This document shows positions 12,175-13,482 of a stretch of 34,083 bases of DNA, piece after piece (position 1 is the first letter of the stretch; every line of letters begins with the position of its first letter). The translations under genes were made by a program, and so were the position numbers. The stretch lies in contig CALDJM010000033.1 of the NCBI GenBank assembly GCA_937899155.1, positions 1-34,083 on the forward strand, given 5' to 3'. The notes beneath the pieces are model-generated. The model did not search any database and had not been told where the DNA came from. It saw only the letters and a program-made list of their open reading frames with translations. Source of the stretch: an uncultured bacterium (GTDB taxonomy: Bacteria; Patescibacteriota; Dojkabacteria; SC72).

Positions 12175-13482
12175 ATGAAAGAACATTCAAGTAAAATAGA
12201 GAAACTAATTAAAGAATTATGCCCTGATGGCGTTGAATTTAAAATGCTTTCAGACATAGCTTTTGTTAGTGGTGCAGGAGTAGATAAGAAAATAAATAGC
12301 AATGAAAAAGAAGTTATCTTGTTAAACTATATGGATGTGTATCGTAACAAATATATTGATAGCTCTATCCCAAAGATGAAAGTTACAGCGACTGATAACA
12401 AAATTAGAGATTGCAATGTCTTGAAAGGAGATATTTTTATAACTCCTTCTTCTGAGGTTTTAAATGACATTGGTAATTCAGCAGTGATTACAGAAGATAT
12501 GGATAATGTCGTTTATAGTTATCATATTATGCGTATAAGATTAAAAGAGGAGAACTTTATAACTTCAATGTTTATAAATTATGTCTTTGAATCAGATTTT
12601 ATACAGAGTCAAATAAACAGAAATGCTAAAGGTATTACTCGTTTCGGTCTGACCAAAACACAGTGGGAGAAGATACAAATTCCCATACCACCCCTTGAAA
12701 TACAAGAGGAAATAGTTAAAATCCTTAATGAGTTTACAGAACTGGAGGCAGAACTGGAGGCAGAACTGGAGAGAAGAAAGAAACAGTATGAGTATTATCG
12801 TAATTTCCTCTTGACATTTGACAGAGCAGATTCTGATAATCTAACAGACAGACAGACAGACAGACAGACAGACAGACAGACAGAGGTTAAATGGCTAACA
12901 TTAGGAGATATAGGAACTATGATAAGAGGTAGTGGGTTACAAAAAAAAGATTTTACAGAAGAAGGAGTTGGTTGTGTTCACTATGGTCAGATTTATACTT
13001 ACTATGGAACTTTCGCAGATAAGACTAAGTCCTTTGTATCTTTAGAATTGTCAAGAAAGCTCAAAAAAGCAAAAAAGGGGGATGTTCTAATTGCAGGTGT
13101 AAGTGAAAATATTGAAGATGTGTGTAAGCCTTTGGGTTGGTTAGGTGATGAGATTTGTATAAGTGGTGATATGTTTGCATTCCGTCATAACCAAAATACT
13201 AAATACATTACATATCTTCTCCAAACTACAGACTTTCAAAAATACAAAGAGAGATATGCACAAGGTACTAAAGTTATTCGTGTTAAATCGGAAAAGATCT
13301 TGGATTACAAAATCCCCATCCCCCCTCTATCAAAACAAAAAGAAATTGTATCTATACTAGACAAATTCGAAAAACTCGTAAATGATATATCCATAGGACT
13401 ACCAGCAGAACTAAATGCTAGAAGAAAACAATATGAATACTATCGTAATAAACTATTAACATTCAAAGAATATGGAGCATAA
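12175..13482 (+). CDS. hsdS: type I restriction-modification system, specificity subunit S (two TRDs, central and distal conserved helices)
   Basis: It has duplicated conserved regions: IPIPPLEIQEEIVKILNEF...RRKKQYEYYRNFLLTF and IPIPPLSKQKEIVSILDKF...ARRKQYEYYRNKLLTF. Confidence 0.9.
   Translation: MKEHSSKIEKLIKELCPDGVEFKMLSDIAFVSGAGVDKKINSNEKEVILLNYMDVYRNKYIDSSIPKMKVTATDNKIRDCNVLKGDIFITPSSEVLNDIGNSAVITEDMDNVVYSYHIMRIRLKEENFITSMFINYVFESDFIQSQINRNAKGITRFGLTKTQWEKIQIPIPPLEIQEEIVKILNEFTELEAELEAELERRKKQYEYYRNFLLTFDRADSDNLTDRQTDRQTDRQTEVKWLTLGDIGTMIRGSGLQKKDFTEEGVGCVHYGQIYTYYGTFADKTKSFVSLELSRKLKKAKKGDVLIAGVSENIEDVCKPLGWLGDEICISGDMFAFRHNQNTKYITYLLQTTDFQKYKERYAQGTKVIRVKSEKILDYKIPIPPLSKQKEIVSILDKFEKLVNDISIGLPAELNARRKQYEYYRNKLLTFKEYGA
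12739..12771 (+). repeat. 12-nt tandem repeat GAACTGGAGGCA x2.75 (ELEA ELEA ELE) in the central conserved helix of hsdS
   Basis: Read directly: full units at 12739..12750 and 12751..12762, and a partial unit at 12763..12771. Confidence 0.9.
12844..12883 (+). repeat. tetranucleotide simple sequence repeat (ACAG)10 inside hsdS, translated as (TDRQ)3-T
   Basis: I counted base by base and found ten perfect ACAG units. The repeat lies between the first half (TRD1 + central helix) and the second half (TRD2) of hsdS. Confidence 0.95.

Follow-up and report, generated by a model that had tools for sequence, protein, structure and literature searches.

The window analysed here, 34,083 nt of DNA from an uncultured bacterium (contig CALDJM010000033.1), contains a Type I restriction-modification (R-M) operon whose specificity gene, hsdS, carries ten perfect ACAG units (12844-12883, + strand) at the junction of its two halves. 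In our reading, to which we would give a probability of about 0.7, this simple sequence repeat (SSR) is a contingency (phase-variation) switch in the hsdS of an intact Type IC system of a Dojkabacteria-related bacterium. Judged by its sequence, the locus has every feature of the class of SSR-driven phase-variable hsdS genes: the repeat lies inside the open reading frame (ORF), has a unit not divisible by three and is long enough to slip; it also falls between two target recognition domains (TRDs), where a frameshift leaves one complete TRD and its helix, as placed by the alignment gap relative to EcoR124 HsdS and by the linker at residues 213-238 of an AlphaFold2 (AF2) model. The mechanism has already been published (NgoAV; Atack et al. 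2019), and no new principle or mechanism is revealed here.

As envisaged, slipped-strand mispairing at replication would add or remove ACAG units. With 10 units (or 7, 13, and so on) the product would be a full-length, two-TRD HsdS, and the M2S or R2M2S complex would recognise an asymmetric bipartite site. Other counts would bring a stop into frame 2-5 codons past the tract, giving a half subunit of ~235-247 aa made up of TRD1 and the central conserved helix (D1); this would homodimerise through the helix and direct methylation and restriction to an interrupted palindrome of the TRD1 half-site. The homodimer step is proposed because published half-HsdS proteins of Type IC, the only family in which this has been demonstrated, self-pair and recognise palindromes (PMC3874165; PMC9577141). 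That the tract slips here, that the half subunit is active and that there are two specificities are inferences.

The tract and the architecture of HsdS

The tract is scored by TRF as 10.2 copies with a 100% match, and a regular-expression search agrees. It lies in an intact hsdS of 435 aa (12175-13482, + strand) with two Methylase_S stretches (Pfam), and at ten units reads in frame as (TDRQ)3-T, as the preliminary description of this DNA had proposed. Rebuilt in silico over a range of 5 to 15 units, the gene encodes 431, 435, and 439 aa at 7, 10, and 13 units. With 9, 12, or 6 units the downstream sequence becomes AGG TTA AAT GGC TAA (stop at 12896-12898), and with 11, 8, or 14 units GGT TAA (stop at 12888-12890); the 9- and 11-unit products are both 239 aa, TRD1 plus the central helix, exactly as had been predicted. 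The two off-frame TAA codons (12888-12898, + strand) had also been presented as stops waiting in the shifted frames. Both exist, but stops within 4 codons in both shifted frames occur at ~15% of the codon positions of this AT-rich operon (33% G+C), so they are ordinary and we rejected them as a design feature.

The repeat itself is not ordinary. Across 300 simulated versions of the window (first-order Markov, of equal dinucleotide make-up) no tetranucleotide repeat was longer than 4 copies, and (ACAG)10 sites are expected to number ~4e-20. The tract is not a chance occurrence; it is also the sole sizeable SSR within the 34 kb. The A8 run at 12941-12948, previously mentioned as a further run in TRD2, is present, but it encodes the KK of a conserved GLQKKDF motif and was set aside as incidental rather than a second switch. 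A/T runs of 8 or more are in fact rarer in the window than expected (2, against 8.6 ± 3.0). The retained ACAG tract stands out because other slippage-prone runs are scarce in this way.

From its Pfam matches, its best solved relative (EcoR124II HsdS, 7BST, E 6.6e-33), and the AF2 model, HsdS at ten units is composed of TRD1, helix D1, a linker, TRD2, and a distal helix, D2. The model, built on 36 homologues with a mean predicted local distance difference test (pLDDT) score of 89.7, places a helix at residues 174-212, a low-confidence linker holding the repeat peptide at 213-238, then TRD2, and a second helix at 385-427. The tract peptide occupies the lowest-confidence part (mean pLDDT 50 for residues 221-230 and 66 for 231-240), and the only run below 50 is residues 220-224. 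In the alignment with EcoR124 HsdS, DRADSDNL(TDRQ)3T corresponds to an 18-residue gap between ...LLSFK and EGEVEWKTLGEIG, and linker length ranges from ~3 to ~28 residues among the 36 homologues. Taken together, the gap, the low-pLDDT linker, and its hypervariable length identify the repeat as an insertion in a permissive hinge; on the model, the (TDRQ)3 peptide sits in a disordered, length-variable linker. Changes of three units had been expected to keep the frame and alter this linker. The frame is indeed kept, but the change in the linker should be neutral, since the spacer between half-sites is set by helix length rather than by the linker (PMC3874165).

The earlier placement of the tract at the hinge between a TRD1/central-helix half and a TRD2/distal-helix half is thus confirmed by both alignment and model. 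D1 (aa 174-212; 12694-12810, + strand) ends in KKQYEYYRNFLLTF, ahead of the tract. TRD2 (aa 239-381) and D2 (aa 385-427), at 12889-13455 on the + strand by AF2 secondary structure and homologue alignment, are what is missing when the tract is out of frame. Gain or loss of one unit ends the rebuilt product after D1, a clean half subunit as had been claimed; by the model this would consist of TRD1, the complete D1 helix, which would then serve for dimerisation, and a short tail. D1 and D2 share 58% identity, as is usual for Type IC, and each closes with KQYEYYRN.LLTF; similarity between these helices has been invoked as the reason that Type IC half subunits can pair with themselves (PMC3874165).

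Assignment to Type IC rests on this D1/D2 identity, on the HsdS match to 7BST, and on HsdR (1016 aa; 13472-16522, + strand), which has HSDR_N, SWI2_SNF2/ResIII, T1R_D3-like, and EcoR124_C domains (Pfam; EcoR124_C at E 2.8e-68) and matches EcoR124 HsdR (PDB 2W00/4BEC) at E ~1e-256 over residues 1-828. A further Type IC trait is a 4-residue repeat within D1, ELEAELEAELE, resembling the TAEL repeat of EcoR124I/II. It is encoded by a perfect 12-bp tandem repeat, CAGAACTGGAGG x2.9 (12737-12771, + strand; TRF, 100% match), at the place in D1 equivalent to that of the 12-bp TAEL repeat, whose copy number shifts the EcoR124I/II spacer from N6 to N7 (PMC3874165). By this analogy CAGAACTGGAGG is a second potential specificity switch in the same hsdS, acting in frame through helix length, unlike the ACAG frameshift; no CAGAACTGGAGG copy variants were observed.

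ACAG tracts in related genes

If the tract is a switch, relatives might be expected in both states. The comparison covered the best 80 hsdS relatives in metagenomes, the best 120 HsdS protein homologues, and a scan of GTDB genomes for (ACAG)≥6, for which 120 matches were listed. Nine of the best 80 metagenomic hsdS loci have a same-strand ACAG tract directly after the KQYEYYR..LLTF helix, and seven of the best 120 homologues have (TDRQ)n at the same place; other repeats found at the helix-to-TRD junction among the best 80 are G9-10, (AGCAC)8, and (GGGGAAC)6. At least 11 of the (ACAG)≥6 sites among the GTDB matches listed are in or beside hsdS homologues. Hosts among these matches include Veillonella parvula, Acetatifactor, several Lachnospiraceae, Peptoniphilaceae, Helcococcus massiliensis, Paludibacteraceae, and Candidatus Velamenicoccus archaeovorus, which we take to span at least Bacillota, Bacteroidota, and Omnitrophota, in addition to the candidate-phylum lineage of the window.

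Counting the window, at least 13 independent loci among the matches listed have a complete ACAG tract, of 5-23 units, so that a comparison of repeat number, as suggested in the preliminary description, reveals both frame states among homologous genes of other taxa. Six of the 13 are in frame (the window, L012, L052, L094, L098, and L178) and seven are out of frame (L018, L053, L057, L075, L085, L106, and L194). In all seven of the latter the downstream TRD remains open for at least 145 aa, and in six for at least 183 aa; L075 runs off its contig. Simple purifying selection on a linker is unlikely to account for this, because the out-of-frame tracts keep an intact TRD beyond them, and for hsdS genes as a class the pattern supports a reversible frame switch.

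The tract lies between TRD1 and TRD2 in the window, L012, L018, and L106. L106, in the complete genome of Ca. Velamenicoccus archaeovorus, is the closest analogue: a TRD1-(ACAG)12-TRD2 gene in the truncated state. In L052, L053, L075, L085, L094, L098, L178, and L194, as in P0001 and others, it instead follows the second helix of "extended" three-TRD genes. Some three-TRD homologues have two different SSRs, one per helix-to-TRD junction: the first helix is followed by G9, the second by (CAGA)5 or (GCACGCC)3 (L057, 1572-1580 and 2200-2219; L073, 1605-1613 and 2218-2238). Such an arrangement would give a combinatorial switch.

Long ACAG tracts also occur outside hsdS among the matches listed (L087-L206): in or beside ORFs for at least three EcoRI-like methylases, at least three Acyl_transf_3 acyltransferases, glycosyltransferases, a Type ISP enzyme, and an Mrr/ResIII protein, and, in a Saccharibacteria metagenome-assembled genome (MAG), within a reverse-transcriptase ORF (L107). 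Methylases, acyltransferases, glycosyltransferases and the like are typical classes of contingency gene. These genes are heterogeneous, and a single alternative context for ACAG tracts was accordingly rejected.

Copy number at the locus and alternative explanations

The window matches part of NCBI contig DAIOWZ010000004.1 (assembly GCA_036758225.1, a MAG) at 100% identity. The only other assembly found across the tract, a contig from an ENA fermentation metagenome (L001), is from a slightly different strain, with five single-nucleotide differences from the window, of which three fall in TRD1 (I28T, V36G, and a silent change); it too has 10 units. Its end, 44 nt past the tract, was not counted as a sign of length heterogeneity: it was assembled with k=127, and a k=127 graph would branch at ~12880 or 12971, not at 12927.

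Other searches for alleles gave little. An exact-flank DNA search of JGI metagenome contigs found no match. Exact look-up of the predicted 6-15-unit products found none on record, but is uninformative because the 10-unit control was equally absent; likewise, the index lacks the exact HsdS, HsdR, and Macro protein products that the MAG contig encodes, so that absence from it says nothing. Flanking-gene look-ups returned the same four samples only. When the neighbouring 735-aa gene was used to look for near-identical strains, the next best match had just 62% identity, and for that reason no further alleles of the locus were retrievable.

Two observations weigh against a switch. The locus shows a single copy number, 10, in the MAG contig and in L001, so that variation in copy number here, which the preliminary description had led one to expect, was not seen in the two independent assemblies. 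In addition, the closest syntenic loci (L207 and L210), which share the order hsdM-ORF735-hsdS-hsdR and have an ORF735 60-62% identical to that of the window, have a hinge of 3-5 residues with no repeat. The tract, found at the same junction elsewhere in the family, is therefore not ancestral to this type of operon. The proposal that it toggles specificity stands on the hinge position, the clean truncation, the Type IC assignment, and the variable tracts of homologues, and is weakened by the uniform count at the locus and the repeat-free hinges of its nearest relatives.

The uniform count would suit a microsatellite that grew within a tolerant linker and has since become fixed as a flexible spacer in frame, with no switching and with deleterious frameshifts purged. 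Ten units persist in both assemblies despite the strain differences, the linker tolerates ~3 to ~28 residues, the repeat peptide is predicted to be disordered, and (ACAG)n contains no stop in any forward frame and is thus harmless as coding sequence. Such a spacer should not, however, be found out of frame ahead of an intact TRD, as it is in 7 of the 13 complete homologous tracts among the matches listed. Nor does it readily account for 40 nt of repeat without one interrupting substitution in DNA where homopolymer runs are depleted; because the tract is perfect, ongoing turnover or selection seems to be at work. Ten tetranucleotide units are also well above the lengths known to phase-vary, which in the REBASE survey include a tetranucleotide tract of just three (PMC7383803). 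We regard a fixed spacer as unlikely. An assembly artefact, in the copy number or in the tract as a whole, is very improbable: many ACAG tracts in other MAGs do end contigs with exactly 13 units (52 nt), an assembly k-mer limit, and L001 ends soon after its tract, but 40 nt is below both read length and the k of L001, the tract is internal to a 40.5-kb contig with hsdS in frame, and an independent assembly has it identically.

Frame switching might instead turn the whole system on and off, if truncated HsdS were unstable or inactive and lost coupling silenced hsdR, leaving out-of-frame cells R-M-negative, for example for DNA uptake or to avoid self-restriction. The hsdR ATG opens the last 11 nt of hsdS, and the only ribosome-binding site that hsdR has for itself is a weak, purine-rich stretch upstream; a stop ~580 nt earlier could reduce HsdR, and 47% of ngoAV loci in gonococcal genomes are predicted to be inactive (PMC9577141). 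On the other side, the truncated product keeps a complete TRD1 and D1 helix with a tail comparable to the natural C-terminus, D1 and D2 share the resemblance thought to permit homodimerisation in Type IC (PMC3874165), and hsdM, lying upstream, is unaffected. A simple ON/OFF role is thus improbable. Under the specificity-switch reading the same overlap and weak ribosome-binding site suggest that less HsdR may be translated in the truncated state as well, which would ease self-restriction just as the switch takes place.

A broader proposal, which we hold as quite speculative and improbable as a whole, is that ACAG/(TDRQ)n forms a "switch cassette", conserved among EcoR124-like hsdS genes and spreading horizontally, that is placed after either helix and toggles between one-, two-, and three-TRD products. 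Here an internal, near-consensus promoter-like site might allow a separate TRD2 half subunit and HsdR to be made when the tract is out of frame, for up to three specificities (TRD1 palindrome, TRD2 palindrome, and heterodimer site). The site in question is a sigma-70-like TTGACA-18-GATAAT (12811-12840, + strand) ending 3 nt before the tract. It is the only match of at least 11/12 in the 34-kb window, where ~2.3 would be expected by chance; its -35 element coincides with conserved L-T-F codons, and it is not conserved in L012 or L106. An AGGAG (12903-12907) and an in-frame ATG (12919) lie downstream. The site may be coincidental, or may act as a promoter inside the gene for TRD2 and hsdR.

Operon context, known systems and implications

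The gene order is hsdM, a 735-aa ORF, hsdS, hsdR, and a DUF6994 gene, with hsdM, hsdS, and hsdR matched over their full lengths; by these matches the Type IC R-M operon, of the EcoR124 family, is complete. HsdM (521 aa; 8384-9949, + strand) has HsdM_N and N6_Mtase domains (Pfam) and is a full-length match to the hsdM equivalog TIGR00497 (NCBIfam, E 3e-227). The 735-aa ORF (9951-12158, + strand) is a putative accessory, defence-linked gene for an SMC/RecF-like ATPase, matching PADLOC candidate family PDC-S46 (E 3.5e-235) and, weakly, SMC_N and RecF. Its homologues occupy the same slot in L207 and L210 and adjoin an EcoRI-like methylase in L211-L213; named ones, at ~50% identity, are from the candidate-phylum bacteria Magasanikbacteria, Nomurabacteria, and Paceibacteria. 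The DUF6994 gene (16608-17321, + strand), identified by family match directly downstream of hsdR, has no match in the defence-system library. There is neither a second hsdS nor any long inverted repeat in the window, and switching by an inverted-repeat shufflon was rejected on these grounds.

The R-M cassette (window ~8044-17710) is 100% identical in contigs of ERZ27283045 (8044-11839 and 16076-17711), while the DNA to its right there (17711-18717, L217) is 2% diverged from the window; contigs of two assemblies end at the same points (8044, 16076, and 17710). The cassette identity, the divergence beside it, and the common break points together suggest that it is an island common to co-occurring strains, with the DUF6994 gene inside it; a compositional test found no G+C anomaly. 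Elsewhere in the window is a compact insertion sequence (24051-25008) with perfect 25-bp terminal inverted repeats and a 300-aa rve-family transposase (24060-24962, minus strand).

Among known systems, NgoAV of Neisseria gonorrhoeae FA1090 is a close parallel. It is likewise Type IC, with an SSR between a TRD1/helix half and a TRD2 half; tract length, at the end of hsdS1, determines whether a truncated 208-aa protein forms a homodimer (GCAN8TGC) or a fused full-length HsdS is made (GCAN7STCA) (PMC9577141). It differs in having a homopolymer, G7, rather than a tetranucleotide x10, and in being usually truncated in gonococci, often with a degenerate hsdS2, whereas the window gene is full length with TRD2 intact. 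Its host is a human pathogen in which switching was shown experimentally; the host here is an uncultured candidate-phylum bacterium for which switching is inferred. EcoR124I-delta50 and EcoDXXI-deltaC consist of the N-terminal TRD and central helix alone and are active on palindromes of the N-TRD half-site, GAA N7 TTC and TCA N8 TGA respectively (PMC3874165). The window hsdS shares their helix sequences and family; they are, however, laboratory deletion or Tn5 mutants, with no reversible natural switch. Together with NgoAV they bear out the earlier appeal to half-HsdS dimerisation as established knowledge.

Tetranucleotide tracts are described in the REBASE survey of Atack et al. As here, hsdS genes with GCAA[n] in Haemophilus (Glaesserella) parasuis and in Pseudomonas aeruginosa have the SSR between TRD1 and TRD2, with predicted full-length and truncated HsdS and two predicted specificities; their copy number varies among strains (7-29 and 3-16), against a single count in the window, and unit and taxa differ (PMC7383803). 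The same source gives G[n], AG[n], and GCAA[n] as tracts switching full-length and truncated forms, and describes "extended" three-TRD genes in Mannheimia haemolytica (G[n]) and Fusobacterium nucleatum (AAGAC[n]). The latter resemble the homologues with ACAG after the second helix, which would toggle two- and three-TRD products; the window gene has two TRDs, with the tract after the first helix, and would toggle one- and two-TRD products.

That a contingency locus of this kind would be noteworthy, as first suggested, overstates the case. In the survey, SSRs occur in 7.9% of REBASE hsdS genes, from environmental organisms as well as pathogens, and lie "invariably between two TRDs"; this type of switch is thus already described as widespread. 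The main text of the survey does not list ACAG among the repeat units of hsdS (PMC7383803). The novelty is modest, and lies in the host and in the recurrence of the ACAG/TDRQ tract across phyla. The lysyl-tRNA synthetase of the window is 75-83% identical to proteins named Candidatus Dojkabacteria, and from this and the candidate-phylum homologues of the 735-aa ORF we take the bacterium to be a Dojkabacteria relative grouping with the candidate phyla radiation (CPR)/Patescibacteria-type bacteria; the taxonomy consulted places Dojkabacteria only under "Bacteria candidate phyla". Among the papers listed in a literature search, none connected phase variation with CPR or Patescibacteria lineages. 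Were the switch-cassette proposal true, this locus would be the first of the contingency type to be described for a CPR episymbiont.

The ACAG/TDRQ variant, apparently widespread in MAGs from gut, rumen, and environmental sources, can be added to the catalogue of hsdS switches, and the locus is one at which metagenome assemblies and methylation-based binning may give mixed signals. Should slippage occur, the methylome of the bacterium and the barrier that its restriction system sets against phages would be diversified, and this candidate-phylum organism, with its very small genome and probable dependence on a host, would share a bet-hedging device with host-adapted pathogens.

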